A stretch of DNA of 64,000 nucleotides from an uncultured Bdellovibrionales bacterium (GCA_964605525.1 CAZSCV010000004.1:38667-102666); one strand, 5' to 3'. Numbered from the stretch's first letter, positions 6,423 through 59,749 are shown. A program made the numbers and translations. Notes: generated by a model from the sequence alone, not told the origin.

Positions 6423-6595
6423 AATTTTTTTGTTATTATTTTTTAAATTATTTTCAATACTTATTTTATAAAAATAAGTATTTTTGAAACTTTGGAAGTT
6501 TCCACCTCGACCTTTAAATATTTAAACAACCGTTTAAATAATAAATAAATTTATAAATACTTACTGTTAAAAAACAAAAAACCGAGTTTCATTAA

Positions 6596-6622
6596 TATGC
6601 AAAAAAATATTTTTGCATATTA
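6596..6622. promoter_or_regulatory. perfect 11-bp-arm palindrome atatgcaaaaa-aat-atttttgcatat, ~175 bp upstream of the TasA-like gene
   Basis: Seen directly in the sequence; candidate operator. Confidence 0.3.
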
Positions 6623-6753
6623 AATTAGATCGGTTTTGCCATTTGACTCCCCGCGCAATAATGGGCAACCATTTTTAGCTTTCTGCGCGGATCATAGCCT
6701 TCTAATTTTCTTTTTTATTTTGTACTCTCATTATCTCAACTGAGATTTTATAG

Positions 6754-7028: not shown

Positions 7029-7829
7029 TTATTTTTCAATTTTATTCCAATCAAAATTCCACGGGTCATCTTTTCTTCCCGGAGAAATTTGATTGTGTCC
7101 CAAGACATATTTTATCTCATACTCTCCTTTTAAATAATCAAGGAGTCCACTCAGCGCGACGTATTGCTCCGCGGTATACTTCTCTTTTTTTGTGTTCATC
7201 AGTTCAATCCCCAAAGAAAAATCATTCACTCCTGTCCGACCGTCAGGAACTTGCGACTGCCCGGCATGGTACGCAATATTTTTATCCTCAACCAAACGGT
7301 AAACACTTCCCTCGCGATCAATCAAATAATGCGGGGCTACTCCGTATTGCTTGTACTCATCAATCAACCCGCGCACATTATATGGCTCGCTCCCCAGCGC
7401 GTCATAAGAAGAATGAATGATTATGGTATCAATATTCCGGCTGGATTTTTTGGCATATCCCCAAGAAACCAAATTCTGAAAAATTTTCAAATCGCTATCT
7501 TTCACTTCCTCTTTTTTGATTTCCGCATCCGCTCCATTTTCCGCACTTTTGTTCTCGCTGGTAACAGGAGCATCCTCCTCTTTGATTTTCCCGCCGGCAA
7601 CTTCAACAGCGCCAGAGGTTGCATCACCGACATCCGCATTTTTAATCCCGCCTACCTTCATCACTTCTTTTGTTTGGATATTCGCATTGAAACTTTCAGC
7701 CTCACTTAAATTCTCAATCACAAGCTCTCCCTTTTCCCTGCCGGAGAAAAAAAACCAAAAACTCACCGCCAAAATGACGATGAGAATTGCAAACAAAATG
7801 TAGATATATTTTGTGTTTTTGATTGTCAT
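7029..7829 (-). CDS. N-acetylmuramoyl-L-alanine amidase (Amidase_2/PGRP family), membrane-anchored
   Basis: N-terminal TM; IIIHSS…AYHAG…NDFSLGIEL motif. Confidence 0.8.
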   Translation of the reverse strand: MTIKNTKYIYILFAILIVILAVSFWFFFSGREKGELVIENLSEAESFNANIQTKEVMKVGGIKNADVGDATSGAVEVAGGKIKEEDAPVTSENKSAENGADAEIKKEEVKDSDLKIFQNLVSWGYAKKSSRNIDTIIIHSSYDALGSEPYNVRGLIDEYKQYGVAPHYLIDREGSVYRLVEDKNIAYHAGQSQVPDGRTGVNDFSLGIELMNTKKEKYTAEQYVALSGLLDYLKGEYEIKYVLGHNQISPGRKDDPWNFDWNKIEK

Positions 7830-7838
7830 TGAAATTTT

Positions 7839-8186
7839 TTAAAAATATCCGCCGCAACACCCAGAAGCTTTTTCCAGGCAATCGCAATCGTCAAGATTGA
7901 GCTCATATACTCCGCCAGCAAGATTGATAACATCCTTTCCACTCTGCGCCAGCATCTGCGCCACATATCCGCTCCGGCTTCCGCTCCGACAAACAAAAAC
8001 AACTTTCTTACTCCAATCGATTTTGTCCAAACTGTTTCCAATTTCAGAAAGAGGAATCAATTTCGATCCTTTGATTTTTATCAAGTCATATTCGTCCTTC
8101 TCCCGCACATCAATAATCTCAAGATTTTCCCCCTCATTATCCAGCATCTCTTTGAAATCTTTTGAATTGATATTTTCAAGCGCCAT
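7839..8186 (-). CDS. rhodanese-domain sulfurtransferase with C-terminal Cys cluster
   Basis: Active-site loop VCRSGSRS; C-terminus CDCLEKASGCCGGYF. Confidence 0.7.
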   Translation of the reverse strand: MALENINSKDFKEMLDNEGENLEIIDVREKDEYDLIKIKGSKLIPLSEIGNSLDKIDWSKKVVFVCRSGSRSGYVAQMLAQSGKDVINLAGGVYELNLDDCDCLEKASGCCGGYF

Positions 8187-8355
8187 ATTTTTTAGTTATA
8201 AAGTTTACACAACCAGATAACAAGACTCTCGGTTTTCCGGAAAAATGTTTTTTTCGTAGCTGTCCGTGTCCCTCGAAAGGACCGGAGAAAAAAATATTTT
8301 TCCGGAAAACCATACGGAAACCATCCAGATATGCAAATTTCAAGTTATTTGTATT

Positions 8356-15022: not shown

Positions 15023-17890
15023 TTACAAATATCTTCCGGTCCAGCTTTTCTTGTCTTTTTCAAGTTTGTCCGGGGTTCCTTGAAAAACAATTTTTCCTCC
15101 ATTGTCTCCTCCGTCCGGACCGAGTTCAACCACCCAATCAGCATTGCGGATAACATCAATATTATGTTCAACAGCAATAACAGTATTTCCCTTATCCACC
15201 AAGGCGTCCAGAACTTGGAGCAATTTTTTCACATCCGCAAAATGCAATCCGATTGTCGGTTCATCCAAAATATACAACGTTTTCCCTGTTGATTTTCGCG
15301 CCAACTCCGTCGCCAATTTGATGCGCTGGGCTTCTCCTCCGGAAAGATTGGTAGCGCTCTGCCCCAGCTTCAAATACCCCAACCCCACTTCATCCATAGT
15401 TCTCAATTTTTCATAAATCAAAGGATAGCGCTTGAAAAAAACCATCGCATAACTCACGCTCATATCCAAAACCTCGGCAATATTCACTCCTTGATATTCA
15501 ATCTCAAGTGTTTTTTTGTTATATCTAGTTCCTCCACAAACCTCGCATTTGACATACATATCCGGAAGTAAATGCATTTCTATTTTTCTCATTCCGTCCC
15601 CCTGACAAACCTCGCAACGTCCACCTTTCATATTGAAACTGAAACGGCTGGAAGTATATCCGCGATTCTGCGATTCTTCCGTCTGCGCAAAGATTTCCCG
15701 GATGTGGGAAAACAGTCCGGTATAAGTAGCGGCATTTGACCGCGGAGTTCTTCCGATCGGACTCTGACTGATATTGATAACTTTGTTCACATTTTCAATT
15801 CCTTTCAATTCTTTGTGTTTTCCAACGCTCGCTCTTGCTCCGTAAAAATGCTTGGAAAGCGCCTTTGCCAAAATGTCATTCACCAAGGTCGATTTTCCGC
15901 TTCCGCTCACACCGCAAACTACCACGAATTTTTCCAGCGGAATTTTGACGCTGATATCTTTCAGATTGTGTTCGCAAGCCTTAATTATTTCAATATTATT
16001 CTTGTTTCCTACGCGGAATTTTTTCTTGTCGGAAACTTTCTTTTTTCCGGAAATATACAAAGCAGTGGAGGTTTTCGATTTTTTCAAACTTTCATAATCA
16101 CCTTGAAAAATAAGCTCCCCGCCTTCTTCTCCGGCGCCCGGTCCCATATCAATCACCCAATCGGCCTCTCGGATGAAATCACTGTCGTGCTCAACGACAA
16201 CCAGTGAATTTCCTTCATCCCTTAAGGATTTGATTGTTTTAATCAGTTTTTCCGTATCCCGGCTGTGCAATCCGATTGAGGGCTCATCCAAAACGTAAAT
16301 TATACCCATCAATTGGGATTTTATTTGCACTGCCAAGCGGATTCTTTGCGCTTCCCCCCCGGAAATAGTTTTGGTTCCCCGCGACAAACTCAAATATTCC
16401 AATCCCACATTTTCCAAAGCTACCAGCCTTTCAATTATTTCCTTTATTAAAACCGCGGAAATTTCCTTATTGCGAATACTTTTATTTTTTTCTAAAAATT
16501 TTTGCAAATATTCTTTCAGATTGGATATGCTCATACTCGCAAAATCATCAATGGATTTTCCATCTATCAGCACATTGAGATATTCCTTTTTCAAACGTTT
16601 TCCCTGGCAAGAAGAACAAACTTTGGCAACCATATATTTCTCAATCTCATTGCGGACATAATCCGAATTTGTTTCCAAATATCTTCCTTCCAGAATAGGA
16701 ATTACTCCCCGGAACCTTTCAACTGATTTATGCGCGCCATCCAATTTGTTTTCCGGTCTGGCTTGGCTCAAATCACTTCCTGATTCTCCCCGCAAAATAA
16801 TATTCAGGTTCTGCACAGAAAGCTTTCCAATCGGAACATTAAGAGAAAATCTGTGTTTCCTGGCCAAATCACTCACCATTGTCCCGTATCCGTTTTCTCC
16901 CATCCTTCCTCCGGCCTTGCTCCACGGGCGGATCGCTCCTTCTGCCAAGGAAAGTTTTTTATTTGGAATAATCAAATCCGGATCAATTTCCATCTTTATA
17001 CCCAAACCGCTGCAATCGCAACAAGCTCCTTCCGGGTTATTAAAAGAAAAATGGCGCGGATTGATTTCTTTTATTTTTGTCTGGCAATTCTGGCAAATAT
17101 ATTCTTGATTGTATTGCAATTCTTTTTCTTGATTTACCAATATAATCATTGAGCCGTCTCCCAATTTCAAAGCTGTTTCAATTGAATCGGAAATCCGTTC
17201 CTCATCCAAATTCTTCTTGTTCAATTCAATCCGGTCAACCACAATATCCACATCGATAGACATTTTTTCCGTAACAATCATAAGCGCCTCGCTCACTGAT
17301 TTTATTTTGTTCTCAAATCTTACCCGGGCATATCCCAATTGCTGGATTTGGCGCAAAACATCCCTTGGGTTTTTTTCCTTTCCTCCATAACGAGAAAGAA
17401 TGGCAATTTGCGTTCCGGAAGGATAAGAAGACACTTCCGCAAGTATTTCTCTTTTTTCTTTTTTCTCCATCAAAACTCCGCATTGCAAACAATGCGGGTC
17501 GCCAACTTTGGCAAATAAAATTCGCAAATAATCATATATTTCCGTAAGGGTTCCAACTGTCGAGCGCGGACTGCGCACCACGCTTTTTTGATCAATGGAA
17601 ATTGTCGGACTGAGATTTTCAATCTTATCCACATCCGGCTTGGAGGACACATCCAAAAAATTGCGCGCGTAAGAAGAAAGCCCTTCCATATACCGGCGAT
17701 TTCCTTCGGCATAAATCGTATCAAACGCCAAGGAAGATTTTCCAGATCCGGAAAGCCCTGTAATAACAACGAATTTGTCGCGCGGAATATCAACGTCGAT
17801 ATTGCGCAAATTATTAACTTTGGCTCCCCGAACAATAATATGGCTTTTATCTTTTTTATTTTCTTTGGAGAGATTTTTCTTTCCGGACAT
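15023..17890 (-). CDS. uvrA: excinuclease ABC subunit A, divergent paralog (UvrA-like 1)
   Basis: Two ABC ATPase modules ([14 protein letters not shown]… and [14 protein letters not shown]…), zinc-finger Cys pairs; 955 aa. Confidence 0.9.
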
Positions 17891-17993
17891 AATTTCTTTT
17901 GATTTTTAAAAAGTTATTTTGCTAATTACAAATTGTAGCGCAGAAATTTGAATATGTAAAGAGAGCCCCGCCAAAAGGAATTGCCACTAAAAA

Positions 17994-18016
17994 ATGCGCG
18001 GAAGGCGCGCAAATTT
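17994..18016 (-). terminator. rho-independent terminator after uvrC
   Basis: Minus-strand gcgcgccttccgcgc hairpin followed by a T-run. Confidence 0.5.
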
Positions 18017-18031
18017 TGCAATAATATTGTT

Positions 18032-19345
18032 TTATTTCAAAAATTCCCTACCTCTCACCTTGCGATGGTAAGAAATCGCAAACCGGTGCGCCTCGTCGGT
18101 TATTCTTTTGATTAAATTTCTGTCATTTAATATCTCCACAAATTGATTTCGAAATCTGGATTTGGAAATTGGAAATTGTTTAGAAATTAAAAATTGGAAA
18201 TTAGAAATTTTTCTGGTCGGTCCTTTTGCCACCGCCACAATCGGAATATCAATCACCAGCTCTTTCCATAATTTTTCCGCCATATTCAAATGCCCGATGC
18301 CTCCGTCAAGAAAAACCAGATCGGGTTTCTGCCAATTGTTTTTGAATCTTCTAATCAAAATTTCCCTCATCATCCCCACATCATCCGCGCCTGCAATGGT
18401 TTTTATTTTAAATTTTCGATACTGCGATTTATCCGGCTCAAATTTTCCGGAATTATCATCAAACACAATCATTGAACCGACCGCATGCTCTCCGGAAATA
18501 TTAGAAATGTCGTACGCCTCAATTCGAATTAATTTTGAATTTATCTGGAAATTATCTTCTCTTTCAGAGACAAGAGCGATATCCTGAATATGCCTTAATG
18601 CAAATATTTTTCTTTTTATTCCGCCGGCTTTTTCAAATTCTTCTTTCTTTGAAAACTCCGCCATTTCCTTTTCCATTTTTTTTATCAAACTTTTCCTTTT
18701 CCCCTCCAAAATCATCCTGATTCCCCGGATATTTTTCGCGTAATCTTTTTTTGAAATTTTACCCGCATACGGTCCGGGGCACATTCCGATTTGAAAATCC
18801 AAGCATCCCTTTTCCGTTTTCTGCTTATTTGAATGAAAGGGAAAGATTCTCCGGATTATTTTAAGCGCGATTTCCATTTGTTTTTTGCTCGTATACGGAC
18901 CATAAACAGCTTTCGGTTCCATTAGATTTTTGGCTTTTAAGCTTTTTGAATTCAAATCGGTTTTGCGAAAAATCATAATACTGGGAAATAATTCTCGGGT
19001 AATAACAATATAGCAAAATGACTTGTCGTCTTTTCCCAGCACATTATATTTCGGCTGGTGTTTTTTTATCAGGTTGGCTTCCAAAATTAAAGCATCCAAA
19101 ACCGATTCAGTTTCGATTATTTTTACATTAGAAACCTGATGAATCATCTCCTCAATCGGTCTCAGACCTCCCCCTCTCCCCCCGGGAGAGGGTTGGGGTG
19201 AGGGAACAAAATACGACCCTACTCTACTTTTCAAACTAGTGGCTTTGCCGATATATATTATCTTTTTTTTCGCATCAAAAAAAACATACACCCCCGGCGC
19301 ATCAGGAAAATTTTTTATTTTATTTTTGAGCATTGGCGAGTTCAC
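18032..19345 (-). CDS. uvrC: excinuclease ABC subunit C (short form without C-terminal HhH)
   Basis: GIY-YIG N-terminus (GVYVFFDAKKKIIYIGKATSLKSRV), UvrB-interaction region, RNase H-like endonuclease domain; 437 aa. Carries an in-frame GC-rich insertion (PSPQPSPGGRGGGLRP). Confidence 0.85.
   Translation of the reverse strand: MNSPMLKNKIKNFPDAPGVYVFFDAKKKIIYIGKATSLKSRVGSYFVPSPQPSPGGRGGGLRPIEEMIHQVSNVKIIETESVLDALILEANLIKKHQPKYNVLGKDDKSFCYIVITRELFPSIMIFRKTDLNSKSLKAKNLMEPKAVYGPYTSKKQMEIALKIIRRIFPFHSNKQKTEKGCLDFQIGMCPGPYAGKISKKDYAKNIRGIRMILEGKRKSLIKKMEKEMAEFSKKEEFEKAGGIKRKIFALRHIQDIALVSEREDNFQINSKLIRIEAYDISNISGEHAVGSMIVFDDNSGKFEPDKSQYRKFKIKTIAGADDVGMMREILIRRFKNNWQKPDLVFLDGGIGHLNMAEKLWKELVIDIPIVAVAKGPTRKISNFQFLISKQFPISKSRFRNQFVEILNDRNLIKRITDEAHRFAISYHRKVRGREFLK
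19166..19205. repeat. GC-rich palindromic mini-element, copy 2, in frame inside uvrC
   Basis: cctccccctctccccCCGGGagagggttggggtgagg; hairpin arms ctctcccc/gggagag; ~70% identical to copy 1 at 294-330. Confidence 0.5.
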
Positions 19346-19360
19346 AATATGTTCCTTAAT

Positions 19361-22240
19361 TTATTTTTTCCGCAACGCTTCGCGCAAGTATTTTCCGGTA
19401 TAGCTTTCTTTGTGCCATTTGGCGACTTCTTCCGGGGTGCCGGCAACCACCAGCTTTCCTCCGCCATCGCCGCCTTCCGGTCCCAAATCGATTATCCAAT
19501 CGGCAGACTTGATCACATCCATATTATGCTCAATAACAACCACCGTATTTCCCGCATCCACCAATCGATTAAGCACATCCAGCAATTTTTTGATATCTTC
19601 AAAATGAAGTCCGGTTGTCGGTTCATCCAAAATATACATCGTATTTCCTGTGGCGCGCCGGGAAAGTTCACTGGCAAGCTTGATTCTTTGCGCCTCTCCG
19701 CCGGAAAGCGTCGTTGCATTCTGCCCCAATTCAATATATCCCAATCCGACTTCCTCCAAAACTTTGAGTGGATCATGAATTTGCGGATAACTCTCGAAAA
19801 ATTCCTTCGCCTCGGAAACTGTCATCGCCAAAACATCGGAAATATTTTTTCCTTTATATTTTACTTGCAACGTTTCCCTGTTATACCTTTTTCCCTTGCA
19901 AACATCGCAAGGCAAATACACATCCGGCATAAATTGCATTTCAATTTTCAAAAATCCTTCTCCTTGGCAATTGTCGCACCTGCCTCCGGCAACATTGAAA
20001 GAAAATCTTCCCATGCCATAACCTTTCTCCCGCGCATCTTTGGTGGCGGAAAAAAGCTGGCGAATCGGAGTAAACAGTCCGGTATATGTCGCAGGATTTG
20101 ACCGCGGCGTGCGTCCGATCGGCGACTGGTCAATCATAATCACTTTGTTAATATTTTCCAGTCCGACAATTTCCTTGTGCTTTCCCGGCACTTCCAGAGA
20201 ACGGTGCAACTTATTCGCCAAGGATTTGTACAAAGTTTCTTCCACTAAAGTCGATTTTCCGCTTCCGGAAACACCCGTCACGCAAACAAAACTCTTAAGA
20301 GGAAATTGCACATTTATGTTTTTCAAATTGTGGCTCGAAGCTCCACGCACAATCAAAGCCTTCTTGTTTTTCATCGACCGGCGCGAATCAGGAACTGCGA
20401 TTTCCATTTCCCCGCTCAAATATTTTCCTGTTATGGAATTTTTATTTTTCATTACTTGTTCAGGAGTTCCTATGGCCACGATTTCTCCGCCATGCTTTCC
20501 CGCTCCCGGTCCGATATCCACCAAAAAATCCGCTTCGCGCATTGTTTCTTCGTCATGTTCAATTGCAATCACGGTGTTTCCGATATCCCGCAAATGTTTC
20601 AGCGTTTCCAAAAGTTTCCGGTTGTCCCGCGCGTGCAATCCAATTGACGGCTCATCCAGGATATACAAAACACCAACCAGTTGCGAACCAACCTGCGAAG
20701 CCAGACGGATTCTTTGCGATTCCCCGCCGGAAAGAGTAAACGCGGTCCGATGCAAGGAGATATAATTCAATCCCACATCGCTGAGAAATTTCAAGCGATT
20801 AATAATTTCTTTGACAATTCTTCCGGCAATCAATTCTTCCTGATGGTTCAATTTCAATTTCCGAAAAAAATCCAGACAATTATCAATACTTATCTGCGAC
20901 ACTTCCACGATATTTTTCCCGCCAGCCGTTACCAGTAAAACCTCTTTTCGATAACGGCTTCCTCCGCAAGTCGAGCAAGGCTTTTGGGACATATATTTTT
21001 CAATATCATTTCGCACCGCATCAGAAGCTGTTTTTTGATAACGATCTTCGAGCCAGCCGGAAACGCCTTTCCAATCCAAATGAAAACTTCTCGTCCCGCC
21101 GCGAAAATGATATTTTACATCAATCAATTCTCCGCCCTCTTTCCCGTAAAGAAGCAGATCGAGATATTTTTTCGACAAATCGCGCAAACGTTTGTTATCG
21201 GGAATATGGTAAAAATTAGTCACGGCGCGAATAACCGTCCCCTGGTAATTATTCGGCTTGTAGCTCCAAGGAAGAACTCCGCCTTCATTAATGGTTTTGT
21301 TTTCATCCGGGATAATCAAATTTGTGTCGATTTCCTTTTTTACTCCCAGTCCTTCACAAGCACTGCATGCTCCGAAGGGAGAATTGAAGGAAAAAAGCCT
21401 CGGTTCCAGCGGAGGAAATTCAATTTCATGAACAGGACAGGAAAGATTTTGATTAAAAACGACCTCCCCTTTCTTTCCCATTTCTCCCTTTTCATTCCTT
21501 TTTCCTCTTTCTTCTTTTTCATCCAATTTTATTTTCACCAGCCCTTCCGATAATTTCAACGCCCTTTCCACGCCTTCAAAAATTCGAGAAATATTTTTTT
21601 CTCCAATTTCCACTTCATCGATAATAACATCTAAAAAATGTTTCTTATTTTTTTCCAATTCAATTTCCTTCCATTTTTCCAAAGAAATTTTTTTTCCGTC
21701 AATATATGCTTTCGAAAGTCCCATTTTCCACAAATTTTCCAAAAGCGCTGAATATTCCCCCTTTCGTCCCCGCACTATCGGAGAGATAATTTTTATTTCT
21801 TTTTTTTCTCCCAAATCCAAAATTCGATCAACGATTTCATCCGTTGAAAGGCGTTTTATTTCCCGACCGCAAATCGGACAGTGCGGCATTCCGATTTTCG
21901 AATACAGCAAGCGCAAATAATCATGAATTTCCGTAATCGTTCCGACTGTCGAACGCGGATTGTGAGAGACTGATTTCTGGTCAATGGAAATTGTCGGCGA
22001 AAGCCCTTCGATATGATCCACATCCGGCTTATCCATCTGTCCCAAAAACTGGCGTGCATAAGATGACAAGCTTTCCAAATACCTTCTTTGCCCTTCAGCA
22101 AAAAGCGTATCAAAGGCCAAAGTACTTTTTCCTGATCCGCTTATTCCCGTAAAAACAATCAGCTTGTCGCGGGGAATATCAAGGTCGATGTTTTTCAAAT
22201 TATGCTCCCTTGCTCCGCGAATTGTTATTTTTTTGTCCAT
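19361..22240 (-). CDS. uvrA: excinuclease ABC subunit A (canonical-like UvrA)
   Basis: [54 protein letters not shown]… closely parallels canonical UvrA; 959 aa. Confidence 0.95.
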   Translation of the reverse strand: MDKKITIRGAREHNLKNIDLDIPRDKLIVFTGISGSGKSTLAFDTLFAEGQRRYLESLSSYARQFLGQMDKPDVDHIEGLSPTISIDQKSVSHNPRSTVGTITEIHDYLRLLYSKIGMPHCPICGREIKRLSTDEIVDRILDLGEKKEIKIISPIVRGRKGEYSALLENLWKMGLSKAYIDGKKISLEKWKEIELEKNKKHFLDVIIDEVEIGEKNISRIFEGVERALKLSEGLVKIKLDEKEERGKRNEKGEMGKKGEVVFNQNLSCPVHEIEFPPLEPRLFSFNSPFGACSACEGLGVKKEIDTNLIIPDENKTINEGGVLPWSYKPNNYQGTVIRAVTNFYHIPDNKRLRDLSKKYLDLLLYGKEGGELIDVKYHFRGGTRSFHLDWKGVSGWLEDRYQKTASDAVRNDIEKYMSQKPCSTCGGSRYRKEVLLVTAGGKNIVEVSQISIDNCLDFFRKLKLNHQEELIAGRIVKEIINRLKFLSDVGLNYISLHRTAFTLSGGESQRIRLASQVGSQLVGVLYILDEPSIGLHARDNRKLLETLKHLRDIGNTVIAIEHDEETMREADFLVDIGPGAGKHGGEIVAIGTPEQVMKNKNSITGKYLSGEMEIAVPDSRRSMKNKKALIVRGASSHNLKNINVQFPLKSFVCVTGVSGSGKSTLVEETLYKSLANKLHRSLEVPGKHKEIVGLENINKVIMIDQSPIGRTPRSNPATYTGLFTPIRQLFSATKDAREKGYGMGRFSFNVAGGRCDNCQGEGFLKIEMQFMPDVYLPCDVCKGKRYNRETLQVKYKGKNISDVLAMTVSEAKEFFESYPQIHDPLKVLEEVGLGYIELGQNATTLSGGEAQRIKLASELSRRATGNTMYILDEPTTGLHFEDIKKLLDVLNRLVDAGNTVVVIEHNMDVIKSADWIIDLGPEGGDGGGKLVVAGTPEEVAKWHKESYTGKYLREALRKK

Positions 22241-26053: not shown

Positions 26054-26207
26054 CTTTCCGAAAAATAATAAATTTTTATTTTTACTCACGTCTTTGTGCG
26101 TATAAATCAAAAACTTTATGCCCAAACCAACCGATATTTAACAAAAAAGGAACAAAATAACCAAAAGGGACGGTTGGAAAAATAAAAATTTATTATTTTT
26201 CGGAAAG
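26054..26207. mobile_element. 154-bp element with 24-bp perfect terminal inverted repeats (copy A), 38 bp upstream of efp
   Basis: ctttccgaaaaataataaattttt … aaaaatttattatttttcggaaag; internal stem ccaaccg…cggttgg; ~88% identical to copy at 61117-61270. Confidence 0.55.
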
Positions 26208-47450: not shown

Positions 47451-47595
47451 GGGTAAAACACCAAAATATTTTTCTTACACTGTCTTTGTGCGATCAGGAC
47501 AAATTCTTCTCGCCCCAACTAATCGACGATTTAAAATAAATCTACAATAATTCCAAAAGGGACACTTGGAAGAAAAATATTTTGGTGTTTTACCC
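47451..47595. repeat. 145-bp element bounded by 26-bp perfect inverted repeats (MITE-like or large hairpin), 10 bp upstream of tRNA-Val
   Basis: Left arm gggtaaaacaccaaaatatttttctt (47451-76); right arm aagaaaaatattttggtgttttaccc (47570-95). Confidence 0.5.
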
Positions 47596-49104: not shown

Positions 49105-49225
49105 TTTTTTACTTTTTAGGACTTACGCATTTAGATAATTTCGTATGGTTTTCCAAAAAAATATTTTTCCGGAAAACCGGGATTCTGATTATTTAATCGC
49201 GTGAGTCCTAACTTTTAACAAAAAA

Positions 49226-55805: not shown

Positions 55806-55850
55806 CAAAAAAGTTGCAAATTTATACACATAAACAAATTTGCAACTTTT
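55806..55850. terminator. bidirectional terminator (15-bp arms) between gpmI and the RT gene
   Basis: aaaagttgcaaattt-atacacataaac-aaatttgcaactttt. Confidence 0.6.
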
Positions 55851-56890
55851 TATTTTTTAATAATTCTACTGATCTTTTTCTCAATCCCCCGCCCATCACA
55901 ATGCTTCAAAACTCCCAAATACGCCTGCAAACTTTGATTAAATTCTTCTTCTGAAATCAATCCTTCTTTCAATATTTTATGATTGAGAGATAATTTCTTC
56001 ATCATCCTCCTTTTCGTTTTCGTCCGCAAGACTCGATGATGCGGCAAAACCACATAACCCAGAAAATCAATGCCTTGCCGATATTTCCTGATGATTATTT
56101 TATTTGGATGTAAATTTAATTTCAGTTCATTTTGCAAAAAATCGCCAAGTTTTCCAATTAACTTTTCTAAATGTTTTTTATCTTCCGCCATAATTATGAA
56201 ATCGTCGCAATACCGCAAATAATATTTTTCTTTCAGGATATGTTTTGCAAATTGATCGAGTTCATTTAGATAGATATTAGCAAAGAGCTGGCTGATAACA
56301 TTTCCCAATGGCAGTCCTTTTGGAAAACTGTGAATTATTCTTTCTGTAAGCCAGATCGCATTTTCGTCTCGGATCTTTCTTTTGATAAGTTTCAGTAAAA
56401 TTTCCTGATCAATCGAATCGAAAAACTTTTTGATGTCGCATTTGAGAGTGAATATTTTTTTCTTATTGTTCTTACTTGCTTTTCTGGAAAATTCTTCAAA
56501 TCTTTTTACGCCTATATGTACTCCTTTATCAATCCTGCAGGAATACGAATCAAGAATAAAATTTTTATCAAAAATCGGATAAAGAATCCTGAAAATCGCA
56601 TGATGCAAAACTCTATCTTTCACCACAGCTTTGTGTATTTTTCGCAATTTTGGATCACAAACATTAAATGAGGTATAATCGGAATGCCGATAGGTTTTGT
56701 TTTTGAGTTCTTTGTGGAGATTGAAAATATTATCTTCCAATTTAAATTCGAATTGTTGCACGTCTATCTTTTTTGTTTTTCCTCTCTTAAATTCATTCCA
56801 CGCCAAAAATAAATTTTCCAAACTAATTATTTTTTTAAAAATACTATGACAGAAAAACTCACAATTAAGACCCCCCCCCAACGCTCTCAA
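55850..56890 (-). CDS. DGR-type reverse transcriptase
   Basis: RT motifs including RYCDDFIIMAED (YxDD box) and N-terminal LENLFLAWNEFKRGK; 346 aa. Listed ORF starts at TTG; an SD-preceded ATG at 56906 is one frame off across a (G)9 tract. Confidence 0.85.
   Translation of the reverse strand: MRALGGGLNCEFFCHSIFKKIISLENLFLAWNEFKRGKTKKIDVQQFEFKLEDNIFNLHKELKNKTYRHSDYTSFNVCDPKLRKIHKAVVKDRVLHHAIFRILYPIFDKNFILDSYSCRIDKGVHIGVKRFEEFSRKASKNNKKKIFTLKCDIKKFFDSIDQEILLKLIKRKIRDENAIWLTERIIHSFPKGLPLGNVISQLFANIYLNELDQFAKHILKEKYYLRYCDDFIIMAEDKKHLEKLIGKLGDFLQNELKLNLHPNKIIIRKYRQGIDFLGYVVLPHHRVLRTKTKRRMMKKLSLNHKILKEGLISEEEFNQSLQAYLGVLKHCDGRGIEKKISRIIKK
56871..56879. repeat. homopolymeric tract C9 (G9 on the coding strand) at the 5' end of the RT gene
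   Basis: With 8 G the ATG at 56906 (AGGA SD 7 nt upstream) would be in frame with the RT; with 9 it terminates after 13 codons. Confidence 0.6.
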
Positions 56891-56948
56891 TAAAATTGTC
56901 GCGCATAAAAATATCCTAAACTATAATCAACCGAAATTATTCTCTGAA

Positions 56949-57257
56949 TTGGAAAATTTGTACAGCGATTGTTATGACCGCGTAAAAAACTTTCCCAAGC
57001 TAGACAAACATCTTCTCGGAAAAGAAATTTTAACTTTTCTTAATGAGACTCAAAAATACTCATTAACCTCGATTCACAACAATTCTTATCTTCCTCTTGC
57101 AAGTGCTAATTTTGACTTATTCAAAAGATCGATTCGCGTTGCTGTAAATAAAAAAATTATTTCTATCGGATGGTACGGATCCCATTTGGAAATAATAATT
57201 TCCATCGGAAAAGAAATTGGCAGTTGGATCAAAAAAACAAAAAGCCCGAAGTTTTAG
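56949..57257 (+). CDS. avd: Avd-like accessory protein of the DGR (TTG start inferred)
   Basis: 102-codon open frame in AT-rich DNA; CYD near the N-terminus and the basic C-terminal …IGKEIGSWIKKTK resemble Bordetella-phage bAvd (…CYDQM…, …VGRILGSWIARVNRK). Opposite strand to RT, TR and target. Confidence 0.5.
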   Translation: MENLYSDCYDRVKNFPKLDKHLLGKEILTFLNETQKYSLTSIHNNSYLPLASANFDLFKRSIRVAVNKKIISIGWYGSHLEIIISIGKEIGSWIKKTKSPKF

Positions 57258-57359
57258 AGGGCGAGGCGCAACCGGTTGTTGCTATTAGAATTGCCGGCAT
57301 TGTTGGAATTGAGGTTGAACTCGCCGCCGTTCGAATTGGCGTTAGCGACTGAACAAATT
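57245..57359 (-). repeat. DGR template repeat (TR)
   Basis: 115 bp aligned without gaps to 57684-57798 at a constant +439 offset. On the minus strand the TR carries 12 AAY codons (NCSVANANSNGGEFNLNSNNAGNSNSNNRLRLAL); every one is substituted in the VR; only one non-A difference. Confidence 0.85.
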
Positions 57360-57581
57360 AGCGTTATTCCTTCCATAGTTTCGAAAAGAAGATTACTCTA
57401 CTTTTTATAACCTATCGCTTTAGGTCTCTGTTTGGACGCTGACATAAATTGATTTTTTCTCCATCCATAGAACAACGCTGAACTTCGGGTTTTGTTATGA
57501 GGAGAGCTTCGCGTACGAATACCCTACTGAACTCATTTTTTATTTTAGCATCTTTTTTTATTTTCCAAAAATTTTGAAAAT

Positions 57582-57611
57582 AAAAAAACCAGCGCATATT
57601 TCATCGCTGGT
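57582..57611 (-). terminator. rho-independent terminator after the DGR target gene
   Basis: Minus-strand accagcgatgaaatatgcgctggt followed by tttttttatttt. Confidence 0.5.
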
Positions 57612-57657
57612 CGAAGTTTGAAAAAATTCTAATCCAAGCTCCAAGGATCCACATCCT

Positions 57658-57675
57658 TTCGTCCTAGCGGACGAA
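57658..57675 (-). promoter_or_regulatory. hairpin (7-bp stem, 4-nt loop) immediately 3' of the VR, where DGR homing hairpins sit
   Basis: ttcgtcc-tagc-ggacgaa, 9 nt past the VR end; a GC-rich IMH-like gagggcgaggcgcaacc is identical in TR and VR. Confidence 0.45.
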
Positions 57676-57683
57676 AATCTGAA

Positions 57684-57798
57684 CCCGAAGAACTAGAGGG
57701 CGAGGCGCAACCGGTAGTCGCTATCCGAAAAGCCGGCATAGCTGGAAACGAGGATGAACTCGCCGCCGCGCGAATAGGCGCTAGCGACTGAACAAACA
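57684..57798 (-). repeat. DGR variable repeat (VR) at the 3' end of the target gene
   Basis: Encodes …VCSVASAYSRGGEFILVSSYAGFSDSDYRLRLAL*; differs from the TR at adenine positions only (aat->gtt, tat, ttt, gat; aac->agc, cgc, atc, gac, tac). Confidence 0.85.
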
Positions 57799-58766
57799 GG
57801 ACCGGTATTCTTGTCCTTATGTTCAATTAAATCCCTCCTCCACTCCCAAGTATTGGGAGCAAGATACTGCTCGTCATCAGCAAAAAGCTGAGCCTGCAGT
57901 ATAATACCTTCCGCGTGAGATATAACTCTCACACCCCTAACAACCGCCGAAACATACGACCGATTGTCAAGATTAACCGGTTCACCGTTTTTATTGACGA
58001 TTTTCTGATTGGCTGGGATGTCAGCCAAATTGCAGGTAAAAATCATCTCAACCGAATCCACTTTTACAAGCGGAACCGCATTCTTTCTGAGGACCCGCGA
58101 TTCCTCCACGACCCAGTTCCTCTTAAAGGCCTTCGTGCCAATTTCATCCGGTTCAATCGGATGGCATCCTTGTAAAAGCTCGCGGAGGGTGAGTTTTGTC
58201 CAGCGATTAGTCGTCCCTGCCTCCGCCCAAATTTTGAAGCCATCTTCCTTGAGCGGTTTCATAATCCGCTCAAAGAAAAACTCGGCTTCAGTCATTCGGA
58301 CTTCAGCAGCTTCGGTCAAGGCACTTGGCGTGGCCTTGATAAGAGCATAATTGAGACAGCCTACCTCAAGCCCCGCCTTAATTGCCGGAAGCCTTTTTTC
58401 CTCAACAAAAATTTTCCCGCGGTCAATACGGAAATCTGCTCCGTAAAAACGCTGGTAGAATTTTTCCTGTTTGGCGATCTGCCCATCCAGTCCGCCGGGC
58501 AGGAATTTTTCCAGATCATTCTCCTTGAGCCACGACAAAAATTCATCGTAGTCAAGAATCTGATCAGATACTTCTTCTTCGGCGCCATAACACAACACCC
58601 GAGCAAAGTCGACAATTTGTTGGCGTTTTCCGAGGTCGTCAATGATCATTTGTTCAATATCAAATGTCCACCCCGCCTCGAACAACCGACGAAACGCCTC
58701 ACTGTGTTTGCTGTATTTTTTGATAAAATCCGCCTCTGTCATTTGGTTCGCAACGGTATTCCCCAT
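57693..58766 (-). CDS. DGR target (variable) protein with C-terminal FGE/C-type-lectin-like VR-bearing fold
   Basis: C-terminus …NTWEWRRD…SRGGEF…GFSDSDYRLRLAL matches DGR variable-protein motifs (NVWEW … RGGSW … GFRL); no signal peptide; GC above local average. Confidence 0.8.
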   Translation of the reverse strand: MGNTVANQMTEADFIKKYSKHSEAFRRLFEAGWTFDIEQMIIDDLGKRQQIVDFARVLCYGAEEEVSDQILDYDEFLSWLKENDLEKFLPGGLDGQIAKQEKFYQRFYGADFRIDRGKIFVEEKRLPAIKAGLEVGCLNYALIKATPSALTEAAEVRMTEAEFFFERIMKPLKEDGFKIWAEAGTTNRWTKLTLRELLQGCHPIEPDEIGTKAFKRNWVVEESRVLRKNAVPLVKVDSVEMIFTCNLADIPANQKIVNKNGEPVNLDNRSYVSAVVRGVRVISHAEGIILQAQLFADDEQYLAPNTWEWRRDLIEHKDKNTGPVCSVASAYSRGGEFILVSSYAGFSDSDYRLRLAL

Positions 58767-58974
58767 CGCACACCTCCCTAAAAAATTTTAAGAACAAAGA
58801 AGTCCGAAAACTTCCACCACTTCGAGCCATTCTCGAAATGATACTCAATTGAAGCACCAAATTATCATTTTGTCAAATATGAATCTCGTTTTTGGCTTAA
58901 ATAAAGGCTTTTATTAGTTTTTTCAAAGTTCACCCTTCAATTTCTGTAAAAAACTCTCACACAATACTAAAAAA

Positions 58975-59022
58975 CTTGTCATTTTGTTGCAATTGCAACT
59001 TTTTGACAAGTTTTTTTGATTT
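58975..59022 (-). terminator. terminator after clpP (nested palindrome)
   Basis: aaacttgtc…gttgcaattgcaac…gacaagttt with a minus-strand T-run. Confidence 0.5.
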
Positions 59023-59624: not shown

Positions 59625-59670
59625 ACTATTTTTAAAATTTATAACTTACACAATTAAGCAGATTCTCGAT

Positions 59671-59727
59671 TTCCTGAAAAATAATAAATTTTTGGTTTTC
59701 CGAAAAAATCATTATTTTTTTCGGAAT
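59671..59727. mobile_element. internally deleted copy (copy C) of the 154-bp TIR element, 45 bp upstream of clpP
   Basis: ttcctgaaaaataataaattttt-gg-ttttccgaaaaaatcattatttttttcggaa: both TIR-like arms without the core. Confidence 0.45.
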
Positions 59728-59749
59728 CCCCTGGGAAAAAGTCTGCCTC

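Follow-up and report, generated by a model that had tools for sequence, protein, structure and literature searches.

A lineage-specific, non-coding foldback repeat, probably of Correia/MITE type, in housekeeping-gene spacers of a Moranbacteria genome

Two 154-nt palindromic sequences upstream of efp and tig, a core-less hairpin upstream of clpP (together, family A) and a diverged member beside ftsH, which we call E, are most probably copies of a single lineage-specific, non-coding foldback repeat of the Correia/MITE type. All four lie in the window, by which we mean the whole 64,000-nt stretch of DNA that was analysed. The features on which the argument rests are given below, the plus strand of the full-length copies being the one that reads the core as GTCTTTGTGCG...CCAAAAGGGAC; the genes that flank the A copies are on the minus strand.

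26054-26207, plus strand: family A at full length (154 nt), in the spacer between rpsR and efp, with 30-nt perfect arms and a 94-nt asymmetric core; 172 bits
61117-61270, plus strand: family A at full length (154 nt), in the spacer between ppa and tig, with C:G, not A:T, at arm position 25/130; 175 bits
59668-59728, no strand assigned: hairpin-only (core-less) family-A copy, ~60 nt, in the tig-clpP spacer
47451-47595, plus strand: diverged family member E, 145 nt, in the spacer from ftsH to tRNA-Val (both genes on the plus strand), found by an inverted-repeat scan; 148 bits
26090-26100, plus strand: core motif 1, GTCTTTGTGCG, also at 61153-61163 and 47482-47492
26161-26171, plus strand: core motif 2, CCAAAAGGGAC, with further copies at 61224-61234 and 47553-47563; in each case it starts 71 nt after the start of motif 1

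The host genome belongs to the Moranbacteria, within the candidate phyla radiation (CPR): the Tig protein encoded in the window is 100% identical to a protein of 'Parcubacteria group bacterium Athens0714_25', and the near relatives are all Candidatus Moranbacteria / Moraniibacteriota. A search of the full-text literature returned no match for the genome name Athens0714_25 and nothing pertinent on miniature mobile elements in Patescibacteria. The three A-family sites sit between co-directional minus-strand genes, in the order rpsF-ssb-rpsR, A, efp at one place and nusA-ppa, A, tig, hairpin, clpP at the other. The first-pass annotation had described three copies in the same orientation upstream of minus-strand efp, tig and clpP, and that arrangement stands, but the distances of 38-54 bp that it gave do not, the gap from the element to the downstream start codon being 62 nt at efp (35 nt with a TTG start), 53 nt at tig and 46 nt at clpP. 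On the other side, the stop codon of the upstream gene is 22-37 nt from the element. GC skew is negative over the whole window, including its block of plus-strand genes, from which it follows that the window lies on one replichore.

The sequences first described as a repeated element are present where they were reported, and the 24-nt terminal inverted repeats said to be identical are common to both full-length copies, as is the conserved inner stem (CCAACCG/CGGTTGG). The two copies are more alike than the ~88% originally estimated: without gaps, 26054-26207 and 61117-61270 differ at 14 of 154 positions (91% identity). In each of them the arms are perfect complements over 30 nt (30/30), and the sole arm difference between the two, A:T against C:G at position 25, is compensated at position 130. 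The other 12 of the 14 differences fall in the 94-nt core, in keeping with the early remark that substitutions lie mainly in predicted loops (arms versus core, binomial P=0.013, Fisher P=0.08). A scan of the window at up to three mismatches finds 5 occurrences of the 23-nt arm, where chance would give 0.01. The third copy, which had been read as core-deleted, does consist of two arm-like halves (59668-59693 and 59703-59728) that are 77% complementary, and we identify it as a homologue of family A on the ground that a full-length copy occupies the same site in the nearest relative (L005:10-165). All three A copies are base-identical across 3-5 contigs that were assembled independently from different samples and so are not assembly artefacts. 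A full-length A copy is predicted to fold at -42 to -49 kcal/mol (z -5 to -8). The only ORF that spans a copy (61105-61302, 65 aa, TTG start) is missing from the efp copy, and a small peptide encoded by the element was rejected on this lack of conservation between copies. The copies are thus non-coding and 145-154 nt long, within the size range of miniature inverted-repeat elements or MITEs (<~500 bp), and they end, like MITEs, in terminal inverted repeats (30/30 complementary in A and 28/29 in E), the terminal sequence in the A/E family being CTTTCCGAAAAATAATAAATTTTT or GGGTAAAACACCAAAATATTTTT.

What makes E a member of the family? Its 29-nt arms, which begin with GGGTAAAACACCAAAATATTTTT, are unlike the A arms in sequence but are still complementary to one another (28/29). 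Exact matches to the 11-mers GTCTTTGTGCG and CCAAAAGGGAC are confined, in the whole window, to the two full-length A copies and E, and in all three the motifs lie on the plus strand. The alignment score of the A core with the E core was equalled in 0/500 shuffles. Judged by these sequence matches, A and E are homologous. Joint folding for covariation had been proposed as a check in the first-pass annotation, and compensated pairs are indeed present. In an alignment of the two window A copies, the copy from the nearest relative (bin 259, below) and E, the consensus fold has 42 pairs, of which 14 changed on both sides and none on one side only, one cell being unpaired; this count was equalled in 0/500 shuffles, and slid controls gave 1-3 such pairs. 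All 17 of the 17 covarying cells pass from one Watson-Crick pair to another with no G-U intermediate. Because every compensated change is of the Watson-Crick kind and lies in a DNA palindrome, the covariation does not demonstrate an RNA function, and it points instead to an element that is maintained at the level of DNA. The arm palindrome is equally valid on both strands. Two hints as to strand come from the inner helix: in the bin 259 copy, the wobble in CCAATTG/TTGGTTGG favours the minus strand, and the plus strand is the one favoured by GUCUUUG/CAAAAGGGAC, whose U-G pairs do not vary. The arms change only while paired and the core motifs are kept; what defines the family is therefore its asymmetric core, carried on a freely covarying long stem. 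MITEs usually show the opposite, with conserved ends and a variable interior, and this counts against a MITE. A covariance model built from the same four sequences and run without filters over the window and ~110 kb of related loci detected no further full-length A/E members; those known in ~72 kb are two full-length copies, one hairpin-only copy and one diverged copy.

The same spacers in related genomes show how quickly these sequences come and go. The nearest relative is Moraniibacteriota bin 259 (Efp 99%, FtsH 96% and Tig 91% identical). An exact scan of 185,579 species genomes for the 23-nt arm found it in one other genome only, bin 259, at the tig-clpP site, and the search of related genomes that had been suggested at the outset thereby yielded a further full-length copy, although from that one genome alone. 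In metagenome and viral collections the arm gave nothing beyond single-arm chance matches, and in viral contigs the core motifs gave nothing beyond chance. The states of the four spacers, with related loci denoted by L numbers, are:

tig-clpP: bare hairpin in the window; full-length A in bin 259 (L005:10-165, 84.5% identical); 11-nt spacer in L035
ftsH-tRNA-Val: full-length E in the window; 34-nt perfect hairpin at the exact site in bin 259; L045 not comparable
rpsR-efp: A in the window; family C in bin 259; 11-nt spacer in L041-L043
ppa-tig: A in the window; family C in bin 259; family B in L035; family D in L036; empty 54-nt spacer in L033

At two orthologous sites, tig-clpP and ftsH-tRNA-Val, the full-length and hairpin-only states are swapped between the window and bin 259, which is to say that loss of the core leaving a hairpin is seen twice and in opposite directions. 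At ftsH-tRNA-Val the flanks are ~97% identical, the junction falls within the self-complementary AAAATATTTT of both arms, and the 34-nt hairpin of bin 259 contains one arm pair with a compensated C:G to T:A change relative to E. (The comparable position in L045, at 7820-8250 of this locus from the relative CAZRJL01, holds an ORF with a GIY-YIG domain (88 aa) and an extra tRNA after ftsH; the window has E and a single tRNA-Val there.) At tig-clpP the clpP-proximal arm and the 47 nt from it down to the clpP ATG are identical in the window and bin 259. We had considered a special constraint on that arm and have withdrawn the idea, because spacers are generally 81-100% identical between the two genomes (L003, L005, L037 and L044). 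Four-fold degenerate sites differ by 17-37% between the window and bin 259, so that the non-coding DNA is more conserved than synonymous sites. That the efp and tig spacers cannot be aligned while the others are so similar indicates insertion and replacement of elements, and in the ppa-tig spacer A, B, C and D are inserted at differing points relative to conserved spacer sequence.

Comparison of syntenic loci, another check proposed early on, bore out a part of what a mobile element should show: the spacers of relatives are either empty (11-54 nt) or otherwise filled, and none of the relatives examined has A in its rpsR-efp or ppa-tig spacer, as between the filled and empty sites of a MITE, but no filled and empty pair with alignable flanks was obtained for A. 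Nor did a target-site duplication appear for A/E. We found no direct repeat of at least 2 nt at the ends of the efp, tig, bin 259 or E copies, even when the boundaries were allowed to shift by a few bases, and no conserved flanking base or oligonucleotide across the A/E copies. Among the 3-5 assemblies there is no population polymorphism at the A copies, and this uniformity gives no sign of current activity. No transposase was found among ten unassigned ORFs of the window, and no Y1/HUH, RAYT, TnpA or TnpB gene; exact-arm scans of the collections found no autonomous or longer element with matching ends. The initial suggestion of a MITE is upheld in substance insofar as the family is non-coding, dispersed over four spacers in ~72 kb, bounded by terminal inverted repeats, restricted to a lineage, accompanied by core-deleted derivatives and missing from relatives' spacers, some of which hold unrelated palindromes in its stead, and is not upheld as regards a target duplication and a transposase partner.

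Three other palindromic families occur in the window or in its relatives, some of them in spacers where the window has A:

8200-8342, plus strand: family B, 143 nt, in which a short core and a 25-nt inner palindrome (8231-8311) are accompanied by inverted repeats on the outside; the direct repeat AGTTAT stands on either side (8194-8199, 8343-8348)
49117-49210, no strand assigned: family B without core, a 94-nt insertion with inner palindrome 49147-49178 and a 6-bp duplication, ACTTTT (49111-49116 and 49211-49216)
L035:2798-2964: further family-B copy, in the ppa-tig spacer of L035
L045:5819-5956: family-B copy between tilS and ftsH, flanked by TAAAAA, present in neither the window nor bin 259
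L003:1383-1547 and L037:2232-2394: family C, palindromic elements of ~160 nt, in the ppa-tig and rpsR-efp spacers of bin 259
L036:~987-1132 and L045:12469-12550: family D, palindromic, with TTGTCATTCC... ends

Family B is a textbook MITE, demonstrably inserted DNA that is co-resident with A/E. The site of the 49117-49210 copy can be aligned precisely and is empty in two relatives, there are two clean empty sites with 6-bp duplications (ACTTTT and TAAAAA), and B accordingly satisfies the full definition of a MITE, target duplications included. It too has a conserved core (GCTGYCCGTGTCCC...TCGAAAGGRCC), and its inner arms covary: both GGTTTTCCGG and GCTGATTTCTTG occur, each opposite a partner that matches it. 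Contig L047, from an assembly of the Athens population, begins inside the B copy of the window. Between the two C copies there are three changes in the arms, all of them compensated (CGGA/TCCG versus CAAG/CTTG); their arms differ from those of A, and no C copy was found in the window. D lies directly after the ppa stop codon in L036 and has 28-nt perfect arms in L045. Homology of A with B, C or D was rejected, as the core alignments are no better than those of shuffles; for this reason we treat them as separate families and make no use of the orientation of B relative to A.

Relative to the flanking genes, the A/E core is antisense at the three A sites and sense at E, and the B core reads antisense at two of its sites but sense in L045; E and the L045 copy of B lie among genes that run the other way. 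Within each family, all independent sites are co-oriented on one chromosome strand (four for A/E, three for B and two for C), an outcome that random orientation would give with a probability of ~1/64, although strand and gene direction can be told apart at no more than two of the sites. That orientation follows the chromosome strand, not gene direction, points, like the arm covariation, to a DNA-level element.

Could A/E then be a structure-specific element of single-strand DNA, its folded hairpin and asymmetric core recognised by a tyrosine or HUH-type enzyme, as are the ends of IS200/IS605, PATEs and REP-RAYT-like elements? Such an element would have a fixed orientation to replication and make no target duplication. 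We consider this unlikely, although several observations are of the kind it calls for: A/E lacks target duplications, its core is conserved and its stem is free in sequence while paired, and the 4/4 independent A/E sites are on one chromosome strand, despite the opposite gene direction at E, on what is a single replichore. The orientation evidence is, however, weak for A/E alone (n=4, p~1/8, one informative site), there is no conserved tetra- or pentanucleotide beside either end, the element is one large palindrome unlike the two separate subterminal hairpins of IS200/IS605, and the window ORFs scanned include no Y1/HUH gene. If this explanation were nonetheless true, CPR bacteria would have in A/E a new class of hairpin element that is recognised by its structure, with GTCTTTGTGCG, 71 nt and CCAAAAGGGAC as its core on a covarying stem, and the bare hairpins would be excision footprints or landing sites.

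We give similarly long odds to a selected, cis-acting RNA hairpin, such as an RNase III processing site, an mRNA stabiliser or an insulator between cistrons, that benefits the expression of housekeeping genes. The stability of the predicted fold is what such an RNA would be expected to have, conservation is higher in the arms than in the core, with arm changes compensated, and the bare hairpins outlast the loss of the core and stay perfect, as does the 34-nt hairpin of bin 259 with its compensated pair. The identity of the clpP-proximal arm and the adjoining 47 nt in both genomes might be added, but it is unexceptional given how well spacers are conserved between them. Against an RNA hairpin, relatives with near-identical genes lack the element or have unrelated ones, the polarity of the core to transcription differs between A and E, G-U intermediates are absent from all 17 covarying cells, and the consensus scan detected no terminator-like site at the elements. 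The conserved position and polarity that characterise a cis-regulatory RNA were not found, the element being missing or replaced in relatives and its core antisense in A and sense in E. The related proposal with which the analysis began, a conserved RNA with a regulatory role at the efp, tig and clpP promoters, is not supported: a different element stands upstream of efp and tig in the genome with 99% identical Efp, other relatives have nothing in their spacers of 11-54 nt, E lies at ftsH/tRNA-Val in the opposite sense with respect to transcription, and Rfam has no match.

Searches for known RNA and promoter elements were likewise negative. At the gathering threshold Rfam returned nothing at the elements, and at E<=10 it returned only generic models of long-hairpin microRNA precursors that scored far below their cut-offs; a known RNA family was rejected on these scans. 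Consensus scans found no terminator-like sites at the elements and no enrichment of promoter-like sites there, and an intrinsic terminator or a sigma-70 promoter borne by the element was rejected on this basis; by eye there is no convincing -35/-10 pair upstream of clpP, tig or efp. A role of the A/T-rich arm as an UP element was considered and dropped. Genuine terminator-like hairpins of the window, at 58969-59016 and after tRNA-Val, differ in appearance. 6S RNA was rejected on context, copy number and missing motifs.

A shared operator that co-regulates efp, tig and clpP as a translation and protein-quality regulon, suggested by three copies upstream of these genes in one orientation, is highly improbable and already contradicted by the comparative data, given that a fourth family member is at ftsH/tRNA-Val, that the sites are not conserved even where Efp is 99% identical, that the copies are as near the upstream stop codon as the downstream start, and that the A arms are, to our knowledge, unlike the heat-shock operators CIRCE, CtsR and HAIR.

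Among known systems, the foldback repeat that we favour most resembles the Correia elements (CREE) of Neisseria. Full-length CREE measure 153-157 bp and have ~26-bp inverted repeats, a directional conserved core and shorter classes with internal deletions; they are non-coding and intergenic, often just upstream of genes, with lineage-specific sites and a TA target duplication, and they number >120 per gonococcal genome (PMC2649163). The duplex of a CREE transcript is cleaved by RNase III (PMC2649163), and effects through promoters, IHF and RNase III are known for Correia elements (PMC2649163, PMC10969869). A/E is like CREE in its near-equal size, inverted repeats of ~26-30 bp, directional core, non-coding intergenic location, deletion fragments and lineage-specific presence, and in the long duplex that it would form if transcribed. 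It is unlike CREE in that the sequences are unrelated, the CREE core ends CCGGTACGG / TCAGGACAA being found in neither A nor E, and in having no TA duplication, only four copies in ~72 kb and a CPR host; the promoter, IHF and RNase III effects are known for CREE only. The resemblance is one of architecture only.

With the classical MITEs (ERIC, RPE and QMITE) A/E shares small size, AT-richness, lack of coding capacity, terminal inverted repeats and a location in AT-rich spacers, and its transcript would, like theirs, fold into a stable stem-loop (PMC10969869). It departs from them in lacking a target duplication and a known IS partner and in keeping its core while its arms change in a compensatory manner. 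Like REP/BIME-RAYT systems and PATEs, it is an extragenic palindrome in which pairing is kept over sequence, with no target duplication and possibly a strand bias linked to replication. However, at 145-154 nt it is much longer than REPs (20-40 nt), it has no GTAG-type head and no clustered BIME arrangement, and there is no conserved target oligonucleotide and, among the window ORFs scanned, no RAYT, TnpA or TnpB. The attC sites of integrons are imperfect palindromes of 57-141 bp that follow genes in one orientation, keep their structure over their sequence and are recognised as folded single-strand DNA. An integron attC site was nevertheless rejected, since the flanks are syntenic housekeeping genes and not cassettes, there are no RYYYAAC/GTTRRRY boxes and no integrase is nearby. 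A/E appears to match neither REP/RAYT nor IS200/IS605 ends, and it is not an attC site, a terminator or a member of any Rfam family. What is unusual in it is that the core is conserved while the arms covary, that orthologous sites hold full-length and hairpin-only states in reciprocal fashion and that its orientation is consistent by strand.

How might a foldback repeat of this kind have arrived at its present sites and states? We envisage an asymmetric core of ~95 nt inside perfect inverted repeats of 29-30 nt, which would have been copied into a small number of AT-rich spacers at gene ends in one lineage of Moranbacteria, either through recombination or through an enzyme that acts in trans. 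The clustering at efp, tig and clpP would then reflect a compact genome with few spacers that tolerate insertion. Different palindromic families do occupy the same few spacers repeatedly, downstream of rpsR, ppa and tig and hence upstream of efp, tig and clpP, as would follow if permissive spacers are few. Decay proceeds by recombination or slippage between the self-complementary centres of the arms, which deletes the core and leaves a bare hairpin, as the two orthologous sites show. The arms, in turn, may be kept perfect at the DNA level by template-switch correction of quasipalindromes. Template switching in the course of replication turns imperfect inverted repeats of bacteria into perfect ones, and this process would produce apparently compensatory changes without selection on RNA. 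In some relatives no more than 11 nt separate the flanking genes, which probably form operons, so that the element is probably co-transcribed. If it is, it would form a perfect RNA duplex of 30 bp, a likely substrate of RNase III by analogy with Correia elements, and neighbouring cistrons could be uncoupled. We infer that such cutting and uncoupling would be a side-effect on the neighbours.

The window has other repeats and structured elements that we record here in their own right. A diversity-generating retroelement occupies 55850-58766: its reverse transcriptase (55850-56890, minus strand) matches PF00078, and its template repeat (57245-57357, 113 nt) matches a variable repeat (57684-57796) with 17/18 mismatches at template adenines, the variable repeat lying at the 3' end of an ORF (57693-58766, 357 aa) with no Pfam match. 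A group I intron (Rfam, 86 bits; 37382-37613, minus strand) lies in a tRNA cluster between tRNA-Met (37167-37240) and tRNA-Val (37639-37713), adjoined by a 25-nt inverted repeat (37245-37320). A c-di-GMP-II-GAG riboswitch aptamer (6619-6711, minus strand; 43.1 against an Rfam gathering score of 40) is upstream of genes for secreted Peptidase_M73-like proteins, and a 28-nt palindrome (6578-6637) overlaps its 3' end. Upstream of nusA, 63412-63525 consists of three tandem 34-nt units (GCAAAGCGATTTCAAGAGACCATACCCCGCGATC, 85-91% identical). At 1293-1989, inverted repeats of 40 nt (1293-1332 and 1950-1989, 83% complementary) surround a single minus-strand ORF (1352-1942) with winged-helix and PaaX central (Cas2-like) domains, a unit that may be a small mobile or invertible one. 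Finally, two UvrA-like paralogues (955 and 959 aa) flank uvrC at 15023-22240 and have in common a 164-nt repeat that is 71% identical (17478-17641 and 21867-22030).

CPR genomes are small and streamlined. At the locus studied here, several families of palindromic micro-elements have been gained, truncated and replaced within a few percent of divergence, with turnover concentrated in a few permissive spacers beside essential genes. An annotator could take such hairpins for regulatory RNAs or terminators, and in assembly they matter because contigs of three assemblies break inside these elements. The reciprocal states at orthologous sites and the Watson-Crick-only covariation of the arms together make a clean natural example of how palindromes are maintained and decay. 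For organisms that are as yet unculturable, a 30-bp duplex in the rpsR-efp, ppa-tig or tig-clpP spacer may also affect the expression of the operons in which it lies.
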